The translations under genes were made by a program, and so were the position numbers. The notes under the pieces are model-generated. The model was not told the DNA's origin and searched no databases. It saw only the letters and a list, made by a program, of their open reading frames with translations. Shown piece by piece: positions 518 through 32,866 of a stretch of DNA of 64,000 nucleotides (position 1 is the stretch's first letter; each line of letters begins with the position of its first letter). This DNA comes from Candidatus Hydrogenedentota bacterium (GTDB lineage Bacteria; Hydrogenedentota; Hydrogenedentia; Hydrogenedentales; SLHB01). The DNA lies in contig BTWA01000003.1 of NCBI GenBank assembly GCA_045863295.1, forward strand, positions 115,158 through 179,157. The letters run 5' to 3'.

Positions 518-1147
518 ATGAAGCTTGCGGTTGCCTTATCCATATTGTTCATGGCGTTTGTAGCCGTTGCTTTCGACGCCTCGGCCCACGAGGAACTGGA
601 GCGGTATATCCAGCAACGAGTGATGGCGGAGGTCTCGCGCGAGAACATTGACTTTACGTTGGAGATCTTGTTCACGAGTCCCGCTTCCGTGAGGGAGCGT
701 AAGCGTATCGACGCGAATCATGATGGCGCTTTGGACAAGGCGGAGCGCAAGGCGTATCTGGAAAGCGCGCTGACGAAGTTGGAATCCGATGTTCGTTTTC
801 AAATTGACATGGAGGCCGTGAACATTGTTCCTCTGGGGGAACCAGAACTGGATCTGCTGGATTCAAAGGATATGGAGGCGCACCCGCATGTGTTGCGGTT
901 TCGATTTTTTGCGCGCACGCCGGGGTCGTTTCGGGGGGGCAGCGTGTTGCAGTTGGATTCGCGGTTGTTTGTGGACGAGCCGTGTTTGGTGTCTGTGTCC
1001 GTGCAGGGCAAAGGCGGCATTCAGATGAGCGTATCGCCGACGGAGGGACTCAAACGGGCGGCCGAGGATGAAGAGGGCATTTGCCTTCTCAAGGCGACTT
1101 GCCGGTACATTCGTTTGACAAAAAGCACTTCGGGGGAAGAGCCATGA
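518..1147 (+). CDS. Secreted hypothetical protein with a canonical EF-hand calcium-binding loop (DANHDGALDKAE)
   Basis: N-terminal signal peptide MKLAVALSILFMAFVAVAFDASA. The EF-hand loop matches D-x-N-x-D-G-x-L-x-x-x-E. The stop (1145-1147) overlaps the ATG (1144-1146) of the next gene as ATGA, which suggests translational coupling. Confidence 0.5.
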   Translation: MKLAVALSILFMAFVAVAFDASAHEELERYIQQRVMAEVSRENIDFTLEILFTSPASVRERKRIDANHDGALDKAERKAYLESALTKLESDVRFQIDMEAVNIVPLGEPELDLLDSKDMEAHPHVLRFRFFARTPGSFRGGSVLQLDSRLFVDEPCLVSVSVQGKGGIQMSVSPTEGLKRAAEDEEGICLLKATCRYIRLTKSTSGEEP

Positions 1148-3291
1148 AGCAATTTCTGATCGTGACGTTGTTCGCATTCGCCGTGGCGCACGGCCAGGAA
1201 ATGGAGGCGCTACCGGGCGCTCCGGAGATGGCGGGCGCGCTTGTGAAACAGCATGGGTATCTGTTTGGCGCCCCGGTATCGGCGGAGGCGGATGCCTCGA
1301 ATCGGGATTGGCAAGAAATACAGCAGGCGTCGCGCCGAGCGACCAGCGAAGAACAGAAGGCCGAAGTGGCGACACGGCGGGCCGCCGCGGCGGATGCGCT
1401 CGTGAAGTTGCTGGAGTCGTGTCCGGAAAAGTATGACTTGGCATTCACGGGGATGGAGACGACATTGCCGCCGCTGGCGCCGGCACGGTTTCCGGGCGAC
1501 TCCGCCGCATTCCTGTTTCGCGTGGCAACGGGCGATGGACCCGCTCGGTGTCTTGTGTTGGACTTCGATCTTTCGGAGCATTCCCATCTCCCGCAATTTC
1601 CGGTGGAAGTGGCGCCCGGTTGCACAACGTGGGTACTGGTTTCGTTGCGGCGGTTGCCGCAATTGACGACGCACTGGTCGTTCGAATTTCGCGTTGCGGG
1701 CCTTCCCACGACCTCACTTCCACTAACCCTGAAGGCATCGGATCACGGCACGCTGAAACTGTCGGTACTCTCGGATGACGATGGCAAGGTTTCCCCCGCC
1801 ATGATTCGATTGACCTGGAAGACCGATGGCAGCGATGTGCGTCCGGGCGGGGCATTGGATTTCAGTCCGCAGTTCGACAAACAGGGGAACCATACCGGCG
1901 CGCGGCGCGCGAACCTGCCGGGCAAGCTCGCGGGAGCGTATTGGTGCATACCGGGCGCCATTTCCATGTCGGTCGCGCCGGGCGAATACGACGTAGTGGT
2001 CCTTCGCGGGGTTGAGCACGTGGCGGTATACGACACGGTGACCGTGCCAGAGGGAGGCATGGCCGAGCGGACGTACCGGCCCCGGCGCTGGGTGAATATG
2101 CCGAAGGCGGGGTGGTACTCCGGCGACGACCATGTGCACTCGCAGATCTTGAGCGATGCGGATGCGGACGCGACCATGACCTGGATACAGGCTGAAGATG
2201 TGCATCTGGCCAATGTGGTCAAGATGGGCGATATCAACCGGACGTGGTTCGAGCAGCGGGGCTTCGGCAAGAACTACAGGGTAATCGACGGCGACTATAT
2301 TCTCTCGCCGGGGCAGGAGTGTCCACGCACGCATAACGAATTGGGCCACACGCTGGCGATGAACATCAAGAACATGATCCGGGACACGGATCGCTATTAT
2401 TTGTACGACACGGTTTTCGACGAAGTGCACCGGCAAGGGGGATTATCGGGCTATGCCCATGTGAACGCGGGGCTGTTTCACGTGCATCGCGACATGAGCA
2501 TGAACATTCCCAAGGAAAAGATCGATTTTGTGGAGTTGCTCCAATTCGCGGACATGAGCACGGATCTCTACTACGAGTTCCTGAATACCGGGTTTCCGGT
2601 CACCGCGTCGGCGGGGAGCGATGTGCCGTGGGGCGGGACTGTGGGCGAAGTACGGGTATTTGCCTACGTGGGCAAGAAGCGGTTTACCGCGGATCGCTGG
2701 TTTGAGGCAGTGCGGCGGGGAAATACGTTTGTGACCAACGGCATCATGCTGGATTTTACCGTGGATGGCGCGTTGCCCGGAGACACGCTGAAGGTCGGCA
2801 ATGGGGATTCGGTGCGCGTGAAGGCCCGCGCGTGGGGCGATCCGGAACGGGATGTGCCTTCCAAGCTGGATGTGATGGTGCATGGCGCGGCGGTGAAGAC
2901 GGTCGAATCCAGCGATCCGAGACAGGCTGAACTCGCGATCGAATTCGAATTGCCCGCCGCGAACGGGTTCTGGATTGCAGCGCGCGCGGAAGGCGCGGAC
3001 GGGTCCCGCGCACACACGACGCCGGTATATGTGATCCGGGACGGTCTGCGGTTCTGGAAATATGATGCGCTGGATGAGTTGATCGCCAAGCGCGAAGCGA
3101 GCCTCGCGGAAATAGAGCAGATCGTGGCCGAGGCGACGCAGGGGAACAGTCCGCGGATTCCCATGGGGCCGCGTCCGGCGGAGTTGCTGGCGCAACAAGG
3201 TCCGGCGTTGCTGGAAAGAGTGGAAGCGGCCAAGGCTATCTATGCGGAGCTGCGCGCAGCAAAGGAGGCCGAGGCGGCGTTACGGGAGTGA
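1144..3291 (+). CDS. Secreted PHP-domain (CehA/McbA-like) metallohydrolase family protein with a long coiled-coil C-terminal tail
   Basis: MKQFLIVTLFAFAVAHG signal peptide. GWYSGDDHVHSQ metal-binding motif typical of PHP/CehA-type hydrolases. An N-terminal beta-sandwich-like region precedes it. Paralogous to the 12245-13756 protein (shared GWWCGDLHVH / EY..LNTG..V..SAGS blocks). Confidence 0.6.
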   Translation: MKQFLIVTLFAFAVAHGQEMEALPGAPEMAGALVKQHGYLFGAPVSAEADASNRDWQEIQQASRRATSEEQKAEVATRRAAAADALVKLLESCPEKYDLAFTGMETTLPPLAPARFPGDSAAFLFRVATGDGPARCLVLDFDLSEHSHLPQFPVEVAPGCTTWVLVSLRRLPQLTTHWSFEFRVAGLPTTSLPLTLKASDHGTLKLSVLSDDDGKVSPAMIRLTWKTDGSDVRPGGALDFSPQFDKQGNHTGARRANLPGKLAGAYWCIPGAISMSVAPGEYDVVVLRGVEHVAVYDTVTVPEGGMAERTYRPRRWVNMPKAGWYSGDDHVHSQILSDADADATMTWIQAEDVHLANVVKMGDINRTWFEQRGFGKNYRVIDGDYILSPGQECPRTHNELGHTLAMNIKNMIRDTDRYYLYDTVFDEVHRQGGLSGYAHVNAGLFHVHRDMSMNIPKEKIDFVELLQFADMSTDLYYEFLNTGFPVTASAGSDVPWGGTVGEVRVFAYVGKKRFTADRWFEAVRRGNTFVTNGIMLDFTVDGALPGDTLKVGNGDSVRVKARAWGDPERDVPSKLDVMVHGAAVKTVESSDPRQAELAIEFELPAANGFWIAARAEGADGSRAHTTPVYVIRDGLRFWKYDALDELIAKREASLAEIEQIVAEATQGNSPRIPMGPRPAELLAQQGPALLERVEAAKAIYAELRAAKEAEAALRE

Positions 3292-3330
3292 GGCGGCGGG
3301 AGTGCGGGCCGGAAATCTGTGATGCTTTGG

Positions 3331-3385
3331 TCCACGGGCTTGTGGCCCGTGACTATTCCCATTTTGTCCCCATTCGGGGACATGG
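3331..3385. terminator. Two GC-rich hairpins in a convergent intergenic region (likely bidirectional terminators)
   Basis: cacgggc-ttgtg-gcccgtg (3333-3351) and tgtcccc-attc-ggggaca (3365-3382) lie between the ends of the 1144-3291 (+) and 3441-4772 (-) genes. Confidence 0.35.
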
Positions 3386-3440
3386 CGCGCACTGAATTTC
3401 GGGGCGTACACAACTTCTAGAATGGCATGTTCGCATGGCA

Positions 3441-5706: not shown

Positions 5707-6630
5707 ATGGCGAGGACGCCGTATGGAATTGGCGTAGACTTGGGCGGCAGCCGGATCAAAGCAGCCGCGGTGGACGAGGACGGGCGCGTCGTCGAGCAGC
5801 GAATTGTTCCCACGTTCGAAAGGTATGCCTCCAGTAGCGATTCGGTTCCGGTTTGGGCAGGGGGAACCGCCGATCTGGTGAGTACGCTGGAGTCGGCCGT
5901 AGGGTACCGTGCGTCACGCATCGGGCTGGCTGCGCCGGGCCTGGCCGCGGCGGACGGGCGATCGGTCGCGTTTCTTCCCGGACGGTTGGAGGGGCTGGAG
6001 GGATTCGACTGGACAGCCTTTCTGGGCCGCGACGCCGTCACGCCGGTGATGAACGATGCGCAGGCGGCGCTGTTGGGAGAGATGTGGATTGGCGCGGGCC
6101 GGGGCCTTCAAGACGCGATTCTGCTGACTCTGGGCACAGGGGTGGGTGGAGCGATTATGTCGGGCGGCCGGGTTTTGCATGGTGCGATTGGGCGCGCGGG
6201 TCATCTGGGTCATATCTGCCTCGATGTTCATGGCGCGCCCGGTATTACCAACATCCCGGGGAGTTTGGAAGAAGCCATTGGCGAGTGTTCGATATTGCGG
6301 CGAAGCAAGGGCCGTTTTGAGTCCACCCGATTGCTTGTCGATGCGGCGCGGGGTGGCGACGCGGAGGCGGCGCGCTGGTGGTCCGAGTCGGTTCGGTCGC
6401 TTGCCTGCGCGATTGCGTCGTACATCAACATACTCGATCCTCAAACCGTTATACTGGGCGGAGGCAACGCGCAACTTGGGGCGGCGTTGTTCGATCCGTT
6501 GTCACTTGAGTTGGATTCCATGGAATGGCGGCCCGGTGGGCATTGCACGCCGGTGATTCCGGCGGCGCTTGGGGAATTGGCCGGCGCGATCGGCGCGGCC
6601 CGGAACGCCATGTTGCATGGACTGCATTGA
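5707..6630 (+). CDS. ROK family sugar kinase (no N-terminal HTH, so a kinase rather than a repressor)
   Basis: N-terminus GIGVDLGGSRIKAAAVDEDG (ATPase phosphate-1 motif). GHLGH motif of ROK proteins. The cysteine-rich Zn motif is atypical. Confidence 0.7.
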   Translation: MARTPYGIGVDLGGSRIKAAAVDEDGRVVEQRIVPTFERYASSSDSVPVWAGGTADLVSTLESAVGYRASRIGLAAPGLAAADGRSVAFLPGRLEGLEGFDWTAFLGRDAVTPVMNDAQAALLGEMWIGAGRGLQDAILLTLGTGVGGAIMSGGRVLHGAIGRAGHLGHICLDVHGAPGITNIPGSLEEAIGECSILRRSKGRFESTRLLVDAARGGDAEAARWWSESVRSLACAIASYINILDPQTVILGGGNAQLGAALFDPLSLELDSMEWRPGGHCTPVIPAALGELAGAIGAARNAMLHGLH

Positions 6631-19289: not shown

Positions 19290-19525
19290 TTGAGTCGCAC
19301 CCCCAAACGAGTTTGGGGGTGGCACATGAGTCCCGGAGGGACGGCCGAAAATAGCCCAGCACTTCGCGTGCTGGGTAATTAACGGATAAAAATCTTCGAG
19401 TCCCGGAGGGACGATAGAAATGGCGTTGCGTTCTGTCGTCCCTCCGGGACTCGCTTCTTCTTGTACTCTGAACCCAGCCTTGGAAAGGCTGGGCTATTTT
19501 CTATTGTCCCTGCCGGGACTCAATT
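19290..19525. repeat. Nested inverted-repeat element with four copies of a 16-nt motif GAGTCCCGGAGGGACG (two direct, two inverted) and flanking hairpins
   Basis: Direct copies at 19328-19343 and 19398-19413. Inverted copies at 19437-19452 and 19505-19522 (2 mismatches). Outer inverted pair aaaatagcccag (19349-19360) / ctgggctatttt (19489-19500). Additional hairpins cacccccaaac-gag-gtttgggggtg and cccagcac-ttcg-gtgctggg. Confidence 0.55.
19472..19502 (+). terminator. Rho-independent terminator-like hairpin with T-tract (within the repeat element)
   Basis: agcccagcc-ttggaaa-ggctgggct followed by atttt. Located about 200 nt downstream of rfbA. Confidence 0.45.
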
Positions 19526-19954
19526 CGCTGAGGGTCCTCCGAAGCGCTCTTCGTGGACGTCGCCATTGCGGCCGAAGTAGAGCACGCGCGCGCCGGAGAT
19601 GAATACAGTGTAGCCAATGCAACCTGCCTCCATCGTACGTTGAAGAAACTCCTGGTAGTAGATCTCCCCGCGTTGGATTGCGCGCACGGCGGATTCGACG
19701 CCAACGGCGTTGAAGGTTTCCGCAACGGTGGCATCAGGGTGGGCCAACGTTAACGTCGTGGCCGCGCCGCTGGGGAGATAGTACGTGCCCACATGGCACG
19801 AGTAGTCGATGTGGTACCGTTCGAGGCCGATGGCCTGCAGTGATTGCACAACTTCGGGGAATGTGGTCTCTCCGCGCAAGGATTGATTCGCGCAGTTTAC
19901 AATTACGGCCAATTGTTCTGTGTTCATTGGGGGATTCCTGTAGTTGGTGCTCAT
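19520..19954 (-). CDS. DUF1398-like conserved hypothetical protein co-transcribed with MarR
   Basis: 144-aa ORF. Its ATG overlaps the MarR stop (ATGA at 19951-19954). Family assignment is from memory of the YSCHVGTYY-type pattern and is uncertain. Confidence 0.5.
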   Translation of the reverse strand: MSTNYRNPPMNTEQLAVIVNCANQSLRGETTFPEVVQSLQAIGLERYHIDYSCHVGTYYLPSGAATTLTLAHPDATVAETFNAVGVESAVRAIQRGEIYYQEFLQRTMEAGCIGYTVFISGARVLYFGRNGDVHEERFGGPSAN

Positions 19955-20409
19955 GTTGTAGGCACGTCTTTCCAGCCGTGAAGTCGTACGAGGTCCGTTA
20001 ACAGTTCTTTCAACTCGGCACGTTGCGCCTTGGAAAGATGGCCAAAAAACTCTTCTTCATTCGCATCAGCCAAGGCCGCGAGCCGCGGCACGAGGCGTTT
20101 GCCCGCGGCCGTAAGCGCAACGGTGTGAAAACGCTGATCACTCCGCACCTCACCGCGCGCGACAAGGCCTTTGACGATTAAGCGGTCCGTCAGCTTCGAA
20201 ATGGCGCCCCGCGTCATGCCCAATACGTCGGCGATGGCGCTGGGATTGGTCTTGCCGTGCCGCAACAGTTCGCGAAGCACTACCCACTCCGCGACCGTCA
20301 CTCCGCAGGCCTCGACCTTCAGCTTGAAGGCATGCGAGACGTGGTTGGACACGAACCGGAGCCAGTATCCAAGGTGATCGTCGAGTTGGCTGATGGGTTT
20401 TGTTTTCAT
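19951..20409 (-). CDS. MarR family transcriptional regulator
   Basis: Winged-helix block LRELLRHGKTNPSAIADVLGMTRGAISKLTDRLIVKGLVAR. About 150 aa from the ATG at 20409. A GTG at 20529 would add 40 aa, so the start is uncertain. Confidence 0.7.
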   Translation of the reverse strand: MKTKPISQLDDHLGYWLRFVSNHVSHAFKLKVEACGVTVAEWVVLRELLRHGKTNPSAIADVLGMTRGAISKLTDRLIVKGLVARGEVRSDQRFHTVALTAAGKRLVPRLAALADANEEEFFGHLSKAQRAELKELLTDLVRLHGWKDVPTT

Positions 20410-20509
20410 GGCGGCCCATATAGTTTCCAAGGCAACTATATCATGGTAATCGAACAAAGTAAAGACACGATCTGGCCGGGGTTGGAGACCTGCGGTCGCG
20501 CCGGTATCG

Positions 20510-20530
20510 GGGTCAGTAGATCGCGACACA
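20510..20530. repeat. Left copy of a ~21-nt direct repeat (GATCGCGACACAACTGCGGGG) flanking the hicAB cassette
   Basis: 19/21 identical to 21145-21165 (GACCGCGACACAGCTGCGGGG). Confidence 0.45.
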
Positions 20531-20630
20531 ACTGCGGGGCAATAAGGAAGGGTATGAGTAGTACCAATAACGATGGTGGTAAGTGTCGCATGTGGATAAT
20601 CGGACCACCGCTGGCACCTCTTTTGAACTA

Positions 20631-20848
20631 GAGAATATCTATGAACTCATCGATGGTAATACCCGCTGAGCGGAGAATGCCATGCAAGGTACCCCGGTCG
20701 AGCTCTTTGTGGTTTGGGACGGCGACTTACGTTTTGGGTGACTGCCTTACGAGAATGATGTGGCTTCTCGCTGACGGGCAATTCCGAATTCGACCTTCTT
20801 CAGAGCTGTGATGCATTTTTTGCCGGAGACGACCGGCAAAGCGGTCAT
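20631..20848 (-). pseudogene. hicA: hicA toxin pseudogene (HicA/YcfA mRNA interferase disrupted by a 1-nt frameshift and an in-frame TAA)
   Basis: Three-frame reading gives MTALPVVSGKKCITALKKVEFGIARQ / (frameshift) RSHIILVRQSPKT * VAVPNHKELDRGTLHGILRSAGITIDEFIDIL. This matches the HicA consensus GF..RQ.GSH...P....VP.H.KEL..GTL..IL.QAGI. The ATG overlaps the hicB stop. Confidence 0.6.
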
Positions 20849-21045
20849 ACGCTGGTCACCTCAAGATGGTCTTCAGGCACCGGTTCCCCGCGCTCGTTCA
20901 GCACTTCGATGTAGAGGTCAATTACTTCACGAATGTTGACCAATGCTTGGTCTCGTGTTTCGCCCTGGCGGATGCAGCCGGGCAGGCTTGGGCATTCGAC
21001 GACCCAGTAGCCGTCTTCGCCGGGGTATAGATTTACTTTACGCAT
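20845..21045 (-). CDS. hicB: HicB family antitoxin (single N-terminal RNase-H-like domain, no DNA-binding domain)
   Basis: MRKVNLYPGEDGYWVVECPSLPGCIRQGETRDQALVNIREVIDLYIEVLNERGEPVPED matches the UPF0150/HicB core. 66 aa from the internal ATG. Confidence 0.7.
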   Translation of the reverse strand: MRKVNLYPGEDGYWVVECPSLPGCIRQGETRDQALVNIREVIDLYIEVLNERGEPVPEDHLEVTSV

Positions 21046-21142
21046 GCTGGCGCTCCTGCCGTAGTCCCTGCATACACCTCCGCAACGGAGATGGAGACCT
21101 TCGGTCGGGCGCATAGCAGGGTCGGGAGACCCTGCCACAACA

Positions 21143-21206
21143 ACTTTTGGGGAGACCGCGACACAGCTGCGGGGACCGCGACACGACCACGAAGACCGCG
21201 ATACGA
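21143..21206. repeat. Three tandem ~20-nt units with core GACCGCGA(C/T)AC immediately upstream of hicB
   Basis: Units start at 21145, 21164 and 21184. The first unit matches the single left copy at 20510-20530. Confidence 0.45.
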
Positions 21207-21233
21207 CTGCATGGATATATGCTGCCGCGATGC

Positions 21234-22712
21234 TTACGCAAGCAACTGCGGCACGAGTTTGCCGGCAACATCGGTGAGGCGGAAGTCGCGGCCTTGGTAG
21301 CGGTAGGTGAGTTGCTCGTGGTTGATGCCGAACAGGTGCAAGAGCGTGGCGTGGAGATCGTTGACGTGGACGGGGTCTTTGACGATGTTCCAGCCGATTT
21401 CATCCGTTTCGCCGATGATTTGGCCGCCTTTTATGCCGCCGCCGGCCATCCACATGCTGAAGGCGAAGGGGTGGTGATCGCGGCCCGTGTTGGGCGCGCG
21501 GCCGACACGGTTTTCGCCCAATGGCGTGCGGCCGAATTCGGCGCCAAACACCACGAGTGTTTCGTCGAGCAGGCCGCGTTGCTTGAGATCTTTCAACAAG
21601 GCCGCGATGGGTTGATCGCACATCATGCAATTGAACGCAAGGCGATCATCGATGTCTTCGTGGTGATCCCATGTAGCGTGGTAGATATTGATGAAGCGCA
21701 CGCCGCGTTCCACGAGGCGCCGCGCAAGAAGGCAGTTCGAGGCAAATGAATTGAATTCGTCGGGGCCGCCGTTGCGGAATTTTTTCCAATGATCGCCTTC
21801 GGTGCGGTTCACACCGTACATTTCGAGCGTGGCGTCGCTTTCATCGGACAGATCGATCAGATCAGGCGCTTCCAACTGCATTCGGCCCGCGAGTTCGTAG
21901 GACGCGATCTTGGCCATGATCTCGGGGTCGTGCGTTTGGTTGTATCGCATCTGATTTAAATCGCGAATCGCGTCAAGCCCCGCGCGCTGGCAATCGTGCG
22001 GCAAATCGGCGGGGTTGCTGAGGTAGAGCACCGGGTCGCCCTGGTTGCGGAAGAGCACGCCTTCGTAGTTCGACGGCAGAAATCCGCTCGTCCAGTTCGA
22101 TGCGCCGCCGCTCGTGCCGCGGCCTGAATTCAACACAACGTAGCCCGGCAGGTTTTCGGATTCGCAACCCAGGCCGTAGTTGATCCAGGATCCCATCGTG
22201 GGCCGGCCGAAGGTGGGCACGCCAGTGTTCATCATCAATTGGCCGGGGTGATGGTTGAACGCTTCCGTGTGCATGGATCGCACCAGCGCAATGTCGTCGG
22301 CGCACGTGGCGGTATGCGGCAGAAGGTCCGACAAATCCATGCCGCATTGCCCGTGCTTCTTGAACACGCGGTTGCAGCCCTTGAGCACGGCCGTTTCTTT
22401 TTGAATGAACGCGAAGCGTACCTTTTCCACCATGGAGTCCGGCAACGGCTGGCCGTCCAACTCGTTCAATTTGGGTTTGGGATCGAAGAGATCGATTTGG
22501 CTGGGCGCGCCTTCCATGAAGAAAAAGATGCAGGCTTTGGCCTTCGCGGGGAAGTGAGGCGTTTTGGGTGCGAGTGGATTCACGGCGTCCGCGTGTGCCA
22601 ACAAGCCGTCGCTCATGAGTAGATTGGCCAGTGCGATTCCGCCAATGCCGCTCGCGGCAGAGGTCAGAAAGTGACGCCGGGATTGAAGCCTTTGTTCTTC
22701 GAATGGATGCAT
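21234..22712 (-). CDS. DUF1501 domain protein (sulfatase-like fold) with Tat signal
   Basis: N-terminal RRHFLTSAASGIGGIALANLL twin-arginine signal. DUF1501 body. Pairs with the upstream PSD1 protein as is typical in Planctomycetota. Confidence 0.8.
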   Translation of the reverse strand: MHPFEEQRLQSRRHFLTSAASGIGGIALANLLMSDGLLAHADAVNPLAPKTPHFPAKAKACIFFFMEGAPSQIDLFDPKPKLNELDGQPLPDSMVEKVRFAFIQKETAVLKGCNRVFKKHGQCGMDLSDLLPHTATCADDIALVRSMHTEAFNHHPGQLMMNTGVPTFGRPTMGSWINYGLGCESENLPGYVVLNSGRGTSGGASNWTSGFLPSNYEGVLFRNQGDPVLYLSNPADLPHDCQRAGLDAIRDLNQMRYNQTHDPEIMAKIASYELAGRMQLEAPDLIDLSDESDATLEMYGVNRTEGDHWKKFRNGGPDEFNSFASNCLLARRLVERGVRFINIYHATWDHHEDIDDRLAFNCMMCDQPIAALLKDLKQRGLLDETLVVFGAEFGRTPLGENRVGRAPNTGRDHHPFAFSMWMAGGGIKGGQIIGETDEIGWNIVKDPVHVNDLHATLLHLFGINHEQLTYRYQGRDFRLTDVAGKLVPQLLA

Positions 22713-31135: not shown

Positions 31136-32866
31136 TCATGCCTTGTCACGGGGGCTTTTGCCGGCATCGGTTTTGGACTCTGCCTTGCCGTCTCCGTCGG
31201 ACTTCACATCGTCGTTAACAGGCTTCATCTTCACGAGATAATCCGGCATTTCCACGCCGGCGATGTCGCGCATGACGTCGAGCATAGGCGGCAGGCTGCG
31301 CGCGAAGTTCTGCAGGAAGTTGGAGGTAGCACTGTGTCCGTTCTGGCTGCCGCCTTCCCAAACCACGACCTTGTCAAACTTGATGTTGGAGATGGCTTTC
31401 GCGGAGGCTTGCGCCAGCCCGTCGAGGTGTTCGAGCATCAGCATCTGGAATGCCTCGTTCGATCCGCCGCATGCGTCGATGATCTTTCGCAAACCTTCGC
31501 CCTTTTTGGCCAGCTTTTCGTATTCGCCCTTGGCTTCGGCTTCCAATTTGGCAAAAATGGCGCGGGCTTCGCCTTCTGCTTCAATGCGGCGCTTCTCGGC
31601 TTCGGCTTCCGCATTTACGATGGTTTGCGCTTTTTCAGCCTTGGCCGGCGCTTCCAATTCAGCGCGGCGCTCGGCTTCGATACGCTCGGCTTCGGCAAGC
31701 GCGGCCTTGGCCATGGCGCGGTTTTGCGCTTCGAGCACGGCGGCTTCCGCCTCGCGCTTTTTCGATTCGCCGGTTTGATAGGCCTCGGCCTGTTTCACTT
31801 GGAGTTCGGCATTGGACGCCGCGACGAGAGCGCGGGATTTGTTTTCGCCTTCGATGGCGGCCGCGTCGGCTTGCGCGATGGCGATACGTTTCTCGCGGTC
31901 GGCCGATTTTTCGCCGGTGACCGCCGTGGCGTCGGCTTCCGCGACCGAGATACGCATTTGCCGCTCGGCATCTTTTTCGCCTTTGACCGCATGGGCATTG
32001 GCCTCGGCGACGGAAATACGCATGGCGCGTTCGGCTTCTTTTACCTGTGTCTCGCGTTCGTAGGCCGCGCGTTGTTCGCCGATGGCCTGTTCTTTCTGCA
32101 ATTCGGCGATGCGAACGGCTTGTTCCCGTTGCGCTTCCCGTATACCGACTTCTTTCAACTTGGTCGCATCGGCCACTTTGACATATTTCTCGCGTTCCGC
32201 ATCGGCCACGCGCACTTCGCCGAGTTTCTCCTGTTCGGCGACGTCGCCGCGGGCCTGTTGCACAGCCTGGGAAGCGGCCTTTTGCCCGATCGCTTCGATG
32301 TATCCAGCGGTATCGGTGATATCGGTGATGTTGACGTTAATCAGCACAAGGCCAATTTTCCGCAATTCCGGTTCCATGGACTCCTGAATACTGTGCAGGA
32401 ACTTCTCGCGGTCGCGGTTGATTTCCTGAATGCTCATGGATGCAATTACCTGGCGCAATTGGCCGAGAATGATGTCTTCCGCCTGCTTCTTGACTTCCAT
32501 GCCGTTCAGACCCAACAAACGGATCGCCGCGTTTTGCATGGCTTCTGGTTCCGTGCCAATCGCGACGGTAAACACACTGGGCACATTGACGCGGATATTT
32601 TCGATCGATAGGGCATCTTTCAGCGGTACTTCAATCTGAATGGGTTCGAGACTGAGCCAACCATAGTCTTGTATGAGCGGGATTATGAACGCCGCGCCGC
32701 CGTGCACGCAACGGGCCGCCTGGCCGGTGCGTACCTGGCCATAAATGACCAGCACCTGGTTGCTGGGGCAACGTTTGTAACGGGTGGCGAGCATGAGCAC
32801 AAAGCCCACAAACAGCACCACAAGTGCAAGCACAATGGCGGCGACCCAAATGTTGTCGAACGGCAT
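31136..32866 (-). CDS. Flotillin family (SPFH/band-7) protein with internal 24-aa tandem repeats
   Basis: N-terminal TM, then SPFH domain, then a long Ala/Glu-rich coiled coil with MRISVAEA.A.AV.GEK repeats. Confidence 0.8.
   Translation of the reverse strand: MPFDNIWVAAIVLALVVLFVGFVLMLATRYKRCPSNQVLVIYGQVRTGQAARCVHGGAAFIIPLIQDYGWLSLEPIQIEVPLKDALSIENIRVNVPSVFTVAIGTEPEAMQNAAIRLLGLNGMEVKKQAEDIILGQLRQVIASMSIQEINRDREKFLHSIQESMEPELRKIGLVLINVNITDITDTAGYIEAIGQKAASQAVQQARGDVAEQEKLGEVRVADAEREKYVKVADATKLKEVGIREAQREQAVRIAELQKEQAIGEQRAAYERETQVKEAERAMRISVAEANAHAVKGEKDAERQMRISVAEADATAVTGEKSADREKRIAIAQADAAAIEGENKSRALVAASNAELQVKQAEAYQTGESKKREAEAAVLEAQNRAMAKAALAEAERIEAERRAELEAPAKAEKAQTIVNAEAEAEKRRIEAEGEARAIFAKLEAEAKGEYEKLAKKGEGLRKIIDACGGSNEAFQMLMLEHLDGLAQASAKAISNIKFDKVVVWEGGSQNGHSATSNFLQNFARSLPPMLDVMRDIAGVEMPDYLVKMKPVNDDVKSDGDGKAESKTDAGKSPRDKA
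31849..32059. repeat. Coding tandem repeat (about 3 x 72 nt) inside the flotillin gene
   Basis: Visible as a 24-aa periodicity in both the real frame and the antisense-strand frames. Confidence 0.5.

Follow-up and report, generated by a model that had tools for sequence, protein, structure and literature searches.

The question raised by this locus is how a small hicBA toxin-antitoxin cassette came to lie between two direct repeats, and whether those repeats were made when the cassette arrived. The locus belongs to a 64,000-nucleotide (nt) stretch of the genome of a Candidatus Hydrogenedentota bacterium (assembly GCA_045863295.1, contig BTWA01000003.1, positions 115,158 to 179,157; hereafter the window), and it consists of an intact hicB antitoxin gene followed by a hicA toxin pseudogene. 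We consider it probable that the repeats are target DNA duplicated at insertion, the cassette having been acquired by insertion with long target duplication, the mode that Kobayashi's group named for restriction-modification (RM) gene complexes (PMC2853133).

The cassette and its flanking repeats

Read on the minus strand, the order is a DUF1501 gene, a 188-nt spacer, hicB, hicA, a 218-nt spacer, marR and a DUF1398 gene. The features on which the argument rests are as follows.

20477..20539, no strand: left repeat copy, 63 nt, downstream of hicA, with its 21-mer core at 20519-20539
20540-21085: cassette of 546 nt, comprising trailer (88 nt), hicA pseudogene, hicB and leader (40 nt)
20540..20627, minus strand: 3' trailer of the cassette (88 nt, 47% G+C), from the hicA stop to the left copy
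20628..20848, minus strand: hicA pseudogene, delimited by three-frame translation and tblastn, with its original TAG stop at 20630..20628
20845..21045, minus strand: hicB, an intact open reading frame (ORF) of 66 amino acids, the short form without a DNA-binding domain
21046..21085, minus strand: 5' leader of the cassette (40 nt), carrying the ribosome-binding site AGGAG, delimited by junction analysis
21086..21174, no strand: right repeat copy, 89 nt, upstream of hicB, with its 21-mer core at 21154-21174
21154..21214: three tandem 20-nt units c, d and e of GACCGCGACAC type, unit c within the duplication and units d and e in the host DNA beyond it

The core of the repeat is the 21-mer GAYCGCGACACARCTGCGGGG, whose copies at 20519-20539 and 21154-21174 are identical at 19 of 21 positions and which has exactly two matches in the 64 kb, with 0.00 expected. 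An earlier inspection of the letters and their open reading frames (the sequence-only reading) had rightly seen a repeat at these two sites, placing it about 9 nt away (20510-20530 and from 21145 onwards), and had taken it to be about 20 nt long, far short of the 63 and 89 nt that the copies actually measure. Compared without gaps, 20477-20532 resembles 21086-21141 at 73% over 56 nt, and once the 26-nt unit b (21128-21153) is taken out of the right side the two copies align gap-free at 50 of 63 positions (79%). Unit b, found in the right copy only, is a degenerate member of the tandem family. The three tandem units of about 20 nt that had been noted upstream of hicB are present, their coordinates being 21154-21214 and not 21145-21206; units d and e occupy 21175-21214, and the array ends 20 nt after the DUF1501 stop codon. 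An 11-mer contained in the tandem units has nine matches against 2.4 expected, three of them in register.

When the same geometry was slid across 1649 other positions of the window, the maximum flank score was 15.0 and none of the 1649 positions reached the 18.5 observed here. In the other 63 kb of the window neither the 21-mer nor either of the flanks recurs, and a scan for the 21-mer in 185,579 representative genomes, the source genome not being among them, returned four actinobacterial hits at chance level. Within the window the motif, which the sequence-only reading had allowed might be a generic repeat, is confined to its two copies. The window matches the long-target-duplication class on three of five criteria. 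The insert is shorter than 20 kb and free of mobility genes, with only hicB and the hicA pseudogene on it, and the repeats that flank it (63 and 89 nt) are longer than 30 bp, both as in the definition of Furuta et al. No recombinase gene was called within some 4-6 kb on either side (a 9.4-kb neighbourhood), where the genes around the insert are those of PSD1, DUF1501, MarR and DUF1398 proteins and a nucleotidyl transferase.

At the RNA level, an Rfam search of 19800-21800 gave no match. The right intergenic region folds better than its shuffles (z = -3.0) through local hairpins, the left-repeat region folds no better than shuffles (z = 0.12), and no RNA structure common to both repeat copies was found. 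On the minus strand, 21086-21130 contains a strong hairpin, CAGGGTC-TCCC-GACCCTG, and small hairpins also occur in the DUF1501-hicB spacer; the strong hairpin has no T-run after it and is therefore not a canonical terminator.

As for the origin of the cassette, its closest HicA and HicB homologues, at 67-80% identity, belong to unrelated phyla, whereas no relative of the neighbouring MarR exceeds 72%, and the G+C content of the cassette is 0.533 compared with 0.572 for the window (7th percentile). Horizontal acquisition of hicBA fits these sequence comparisons, because the homologues span unrelated phyla and the cassette is slightly G+C-poor. Carriage of the window's HicB clade by plasmids or phages is rare, with seven plasmid records (at most 66% identity) and one phage record. 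The earlier suggestion that the repeats mark the acquisition of a discrete cassette is the part of the sequence-only reading of the repeats that we retain.

Flanking direct repeats in related hicBA loci

We drew on 80 metagenomic loci with HicB relatives and, in each of 63 hicBA loci with usable flanks, aligned the 400 nt that precede hicB with the 400 nt that follow hicA. The direct-repeat score was at least 17.5 in 19 of the 63 loci and rose to 175, whereas cross-locus controls averaged 9.3 (99th percentile 14.7) and inverted alignments within the same locus averaged 10.1. Pseudo-cassettes placed elsewhere in the same contigs reached a score of 17 at 10 of 480 positions (2%), half of them from L092. 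Without the duplicates and a generic repeat, about 16 of the 19 count as independent; after removal of duplicate and orthologous loci, about ten strong independent cases (50-330 nt) and about five short ones remain of some 53 independent loci. The excess of locus-specific flanking repeats among the relatives is an observation, as are the gene identities, the lesions and the repeat anatomy of the window itself.

The flanking repeats of the related loci are 33-330 nt long and 73-96% identical between copies, and each locus has its own repeat sequence. In most loci there are 38-127 nt between the end of the upstream copy and the hicB ATG (up to 353 nt in a few) and 7-95 nt between hicA and the start of the downstream copy (up to 354 nt), and the copy-to-copy spacing is mostly 560-690 nt, which compares with 609/635 nt in the window. 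The upstream copy corresponds to the 3' end of a long host ORF in L027, L020, L042, L044, L051 and L012. In L020, L044 and L051 it extends to the host stop codon, in L027 and L042 a gap of 5-7 nt separates it from that codon, and in L012 it ends 75 nt short, the host ORF continuing into the cassette. The downstream copy of these co-directional cases starts 10-81 nt after hicA and is therefore merely a 3' fragment of the host gene. In L094 it is the downstream copy that corresponds to the 3' end of a gene, the convergent downstream neighbour. The direct repeat that brackets the L012 cassette is about 100 nt long and unrelated in sequence to that of the window; its upstream copy falls within a GH38 gene, at the 3' end, and the same structure is seen again in L013 and L014, that is, in three independent assemblies.

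We found no conserved cassette termini and no terminal inverted repeats among the related loci. In L020, L094 and L018 hicB is preceded by a sigma-70-like promoter, situated on the hicB side of the upstream copy, and since the promoter is inside the cassette in these loci, the inserted unit is DNA carrying its own promoter. A retro-copied mRNA with a variable duplication, which we also considered, was rejected on account of this promoter inside the relatives' inserts.

Three further observations concern individual loci. The region of L092 at about 1000-3400 contains repeats of about 90 nt with CTGGATCCCCAATCAAGTTGGGGATGACA-like hairpins and gave high scores at many control positions, so that its flanking repeat was discounted, and the short flanking repeat of L073 resembles a generic hairpin repeat. 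L020 (1055-1154/1701-1800) and L027 (2246-2405/2936-3095) are orthologous, with 86% nucleotide identity, and have the same host gene end duplicated; the duplication is 100 nt long in L020 and 160 nt in L027, and the copies group by position at some sites and by genome at others. This pattern could be the product of gene conversion or of independent insertions, the four-way comparison of the copies having given mixed signals.

Decay of the toxin gene and retention of the antitoxin

HicA is a small ribosome-independent toxin that cleaves mRNA, with its catalytic histidine in a GSH motif. The hicA gene of the window carries two lesions, both of which the sequence-only reading had detected and which translation located and alignment to intact HicA homologues mapped to the Gly28 codon and to codon 41. 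The former is a 1-nt deletion (GGA to GA; plus strand 20766-20767) that turns QRGSH into QRE.., and the latter is an in-frame TAA at 20727-20729. Two frames suffice to read the remains of the gene, rather than the three that had been proposed: frame 1 is MTALPVVSGKKCITALKKVEFGIARQRE, after which the register is lost, and the second frame reads SHIILVRQSPKT, a stop, VAVPNHKELDRGTLHGILRSAGITIDEFIDIL and a final stop, in agreement with tblastn, which gives two segments plus a stop. The repaired product of 73 amino acids matches PF07927 (HicA_toxin) over profile positions 1-58 of 58 (E = 1.8e-15, 57 bits; cut-off 27), is 60-68% identical to intact homologues of 73-74 amino acids and retains all columns that are invariant among 12 of them. 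The surviving frames show few departures from the homologue consensus at conserved positions, for instance R56H. A Q occupies the position of the TAA in several homologues, the five nearest cassettes among them, and because these nearest cassettes carry Q there the stop likely arose by a single CAA to TAA change. An intact frame with the catalytic histidine has not been kept, Ser29-His30 and everything downstream being out of frame, and since the frameshift sits directly before the Ser-His of the GSH motif no active toxin is possible.

The hicB product, in turn, is intact, as the sequence-only reading had stated: the 66-amino-acid ORF matches PF15919 (HicB_lk_antitox) with E = 4e-9 and 37 bits, above the Pfam cut-off of 27 bits. 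Only residues 8-58 of 66 match, all of them to the N-terminal HicB-like domain; a C-terminal DNA-binding domain (ribbon-helix-helix or helix-turn-helix) is absent, with no other Pfam domain present and no room for one. The homologues of 66 amino acids are 68-80% identical to it, and all 27 of the 27 columns invariant among them are kept in the window. Short HicB binds HicA directly and so neutralises it, and an ATGA overlap couples the translation of the two genes; here too the hicB stop codon and the hicA start overlap as ATGA, linking the two genes in one operon, and the overlapping arrangement is also found in about 65 relatives. A minus-strand promoter scan of the leader of the window's hicB found no sigma-70-like promoter, and hicB may be transcribed by read-through from the DUF1501 gene, its expression being uncertain.

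With the toxin inactivated and the antitoxin kept, as had been proposed, the module is, to judge by its reading frames, one in which hicBA has decayed recently on the toxin side. Loss of hicA with hicB intact is the only viable order of loss; toxin-first decay is the order to be expected, and it is seen repeatedly in this clade. A frameshifted, truncated or stop-containing hicA lies beside an intact hicB in about 10 of 65 independent relatives (L019/L024, L031, L041, L043, L045, L052, L057, L068, L081 and L086); L019 and L024 share the same frameshift in two assemblies, and intact orthologues are known for L057 (L028) and L068 (L048/L058).

The recurrent loss of hicA that gene calls imply for the closest relatives is an artefact, tblastn showing that hicA is intact there. 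In L008 (932-1153), L012 (3198-3419), L013 and L014, hicA has a non-ATG start (translated as V or L) that overlaps the hicB stop, and such a start misleads gene callers into false orphan-hicB annotations.

The proposed long target duplication and its rivals

In the history that we propose, the ancestral spacer would have begun at the DUF1501 stop codon, continued with tandem GACCGCGACAC-type units and a stretch holding many GGAGACC hairpins, and ended at the marR promoter. The horizontally acquired 546-nt cassette would have entered it 14 nt upstream of the marR -35 hexamer by illegitimate insertion, and about 63 nt of target, one GACCGCGACAC-type unit and the adjacent 42 nt or so, would have been copied to both sides, the marR promoter thereby being left with its native upstream sequence. 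The copies would then have diverged to 79% identity, the right one gaining or keeping the 26-nt unit, and hicBA, originally a working type II toxin-antitoxin pair, would have persisted as an addiction-type module until the recent decay of hicA. Candidate mechanisms for duplications of 33-330 nt are widely staggered breaks with fill-in, or replication template switching; DNA cleavage by the cargo could play no part, because HicA is an RNase. Inserts flanked by long direct repeats would quickly be lost by recombination unless post-segregational killing penalised their loss, and the footprint would be seen for RM and toxin-antitoxin modules because killing penalises excision through the repeats. 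We infer from the flanks that the repeats arose at insertion, and the molecular mechanism and the protection of repeat-flanked inserts by post-segregational killing are put forward in the same spirit.

Several points weigh against this history. The nearest MarR relative is 72% identical with non-syntenic flanks, and no empty site was found for the window; the repeat is unique within the 64 kb searched, and it could be a dispersed repeat elsewhere in the genome. The window's repeats are non-coding and, with a score of 18.5, among the weakest positives, and the tandem-repeat family that they contain could expand and contract independently. A copy identity of 79% implies an old insertion, yet hicA has only two lesions, a combination that calls for a toxin kept for a long time and decaying only recently. 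The related loci were chosen for an intact hicB, so the reverse order of loss falls outside the count of disrupted hicA genes. The window is a weaker, older-looking example of its class.

The main rival is a chance insertion between pre-existing copies of a native repeat, either dispersed or locally amplified, of the kind of repetitive extragenic palindromic (REP) sequences or miniature inverted-repeat transposable elements (MITEs); the GACCGCGACAC-type units and the GGAGACC-hairpin segment would be members of it, and the insertion would have duplicated nothing. Furuta et al. recognise a class of 'chance insertions between repeated sequences' (PMC2853133), the four tandem units on the right side show that the sequence amplifies locally, and the short repeats of some relatives are generic hairpins (L073) or lie in repeat-rich DNA (L092). 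However, we hold this explanation to be unlikely, given that neither the rest of the window nor the representative genomes yielded copies beyond chance, that the two sides are collinear over 63 nt including a non-repetitive part of 42 nt, and that the geometry is that of the roughly ten strong relatives, whose repeat is unique coding DNA. It seems highly improbable to us that the repeats are attL and attR sites of a recombinase acting in trans, be it a tyrosine or serine integrase or an integron integrase working on attC-like sites. Direct repeats around a discrete insert are the classic signature of attachment sites, one of the two possibilities that the sequence-only reading had offered, and toxin-antitoxin cassettes are generally known to be common in chromosomal integrons; but the repeat has a different sequence at every related locus and is often a copy of host coding DNA, hence not borne by the element, its length ranges over 33-330 nt, conserved ends are lacking in the cassettes, no recombinase gene was called in the flanking 4-6 kb or so, and the left region has no attC-like fold. 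For the integron variant in particular, the lack of a palindrome and of an integrase in the 9.4-kb neighbourhood, together with the coding repeats of the relatives, led us to reject it.

The same earlier reading had offered an operator array as its other possibility, and an array of operators or iterons for a regulator of both hicBA and the marR operon would account for the 20-nt spacing, close to two helical turns, and for the presence of one copy just upstream of each transcription unit. We nevertheless give this very little credence: a HicB of 66 amino acids has no DNA-binding domain, the tandem units are 109-169 nt away from the hicB ATG on its upstream side, beyond the cassette boundary and in host-derived DNA, and MarR has its likely operator elsewhere, in a different and conserved palindrome (20418-20441). 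The motif is moreover absent from the relatives, which have locus-specific duplications instead, and there is no Rfam or structural signal common to both copies. It would also be conceivable that hicA is intact and that both lesions are errors of sequencing or assembly, since the source is a metagenome-assembled genome (MAG) and single-base indels are among the errors known to arise in assemblies. Against this, the lesions are of different kinds and neither lies in a long homopolymer, and a disrupted hicA beside an intact hicB recurs in the relatives, in one case in two assemblies. The Logan assembly of run DRR491770, which may rest on the same reads as the source MAG, is 100% identical over 9421 nt and has the same 33-amino-acid hicA stub. 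An error is unlikely because two independent lesions occur in two assemblies, and an intact toxin gene is to our minds scarcely credible.

Host neighbourhood

The neighbouring host features are given below.

19951..20409, minus strand: MarR-family regulator gene, 152 amino acids (PF12802, E = 3e-13; PF01047)
20463..20435, minus strand: MarR promoter-like site, TTTACT-17-TGnTATAGT, with the -35 at 20458-20463, from a promoter scan
20418-20441: palindrome ATATAGTTTCC/GGCAACTATAT, an inverted repeat overlapping the -10 of the marR promoter-like site
21234..22712, minus strand: DUF1501 gene, 492 amino acids (PF07394, E = 1.6e-153), stop codon at 21234-21236

The DUF1501 gene is the upstream host neighbour and is co-directional with hicBA; marR is the host neighbour downstream of the insertion. 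The MarR protein of the window is identical to NCBI protein AMXMBFR84_06410, the locus tags in the source MAG being AMXMBFR84_06410 and _06420. Its promoter-like site had been thought to overlap the left repeat; instead, the two are 14 nt apart. In L003, a MarR homologue with 68% identity has ATAGTTTCCTAGGAAACTAT at 5968-5990, just upstream of its start, and the palindrome at 20418-20441 is probably a conserved MarR autoregulatory operator. The succession of marR and the DUF1398 gene (19520-20409 in the window, 6001-6912 in L003) is kept in two distant relatives in which the other genes differ, and the pair looks like a conserved two-gene operon. The best non-self homologue of MarR is 72% identical, and the flanks of the conserved pair are not syntenic. 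Elsewhere in the window, Tandem Repeats Finder reports a tandem repeat at 31863-32042 with a 66-nt period, about 2.4 copies and 74-77% matches.

Comparison with known systems and implications

In RM gene complexes, long target duplication involves repeats of 46-423 bp that are unique in the genome, often overlap gene 3' ends and come with no mobility genes (PMC2853133); the same paper cites Nobusato et al. (2000, Gene 259:99) for long target duplication in RM systems. A 2014 review of the parallels between RM and toxin-antitoxin systems assigns it to RM systems only (PMC3874152), and a limited literature search, which cannot prove absence, turned up only papers on RM systems and reviews citing these, and none that describes the mode in type II toxin-antitoxin modules. 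The hicBA loci share with the RM cases a small addiction-type gene pair, the absence of a mobility gene, and repeats of variable length above 30 bp (33-330 nt here) that derive from a unique local target and frequently overlap a neighbouring gene's 3' end. They differ in that the cargo is a type II toxin-antitoxin pair with an RNA-cleaving toxin, and in that the case made here is one of flank comparison alone, whereas the RM cases are backed by empty sites in sister genomes.

In regards to HicAB systems (PF07927, PF15919), the window has both domains, adjacent and overlapping genes, the GSH histidine motif and relatives spread across phyla, a spread that speaks for horizontal transfer; in contrast to them, hicB precedes hicA, the short HicB of 66 amino acids has no C-terminal DNA-binding domain of the kind found in the studied HicB proteins, and hicA is a pseudogene. 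Integron toxin-antitoxin cassettes are likewise small and bounded by direct repeats, but the window has no attC structure, integrase or array, and its repeats are target-derived and locus-specific. Decay of chromosomal toxin-antitoxin modules has been described for ccdO157 in E. coli and for the hok-sok copies of K-12 (PMC2654758). As there, a chromosomal module is losing its addiction, with the toxin hit first and the antitoxin frame surviving, although family and phylum are others and a single genome takes the place of a population series. The surviving HicB of the window may have a putative anti-addiction role, by analogy with such systems.

A toxin pseudogene alone is ordinary, and what is added here is the pattern across the hicBA clade, a variant of a known insertion mode. 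More generally, whether short hicB-hicA cassettes are self-contained mobile units seems to us evenly balanced; as such they would insert by a host-mediated route that needs no transposase or integrase, with long variable duplications and a preference for host gene 3' ends, and the inserts would persist only if they were addiction modules. Should that reading be true, the duplication would have to come about without the cargo cutting DNA, since HicA cuts RNA.

The movement between genomes of chromosomal toxin-antitoxin modules that no plasmid, phage or transposon carries is poorly understood, and flanking duplications provide a footprint of insertion that can be counted: locus-specific duplications flank about a quarter of the sampled hicBA loci, compared with 2% of control positions. 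In the window, the footprint allowed the DUF1501-marR intergenic region to be reconstructed as it probably was before the insertion, and places beside it a toxin-first decay that would be at an early stage. For the family, the pattern would extend the RM insertion mode to an RNA-targeting pair and argues against a cargo nuclease making the staggered cuts; if true, it would mean that addiction protects repeat-flanked inserts from recombinational loss.

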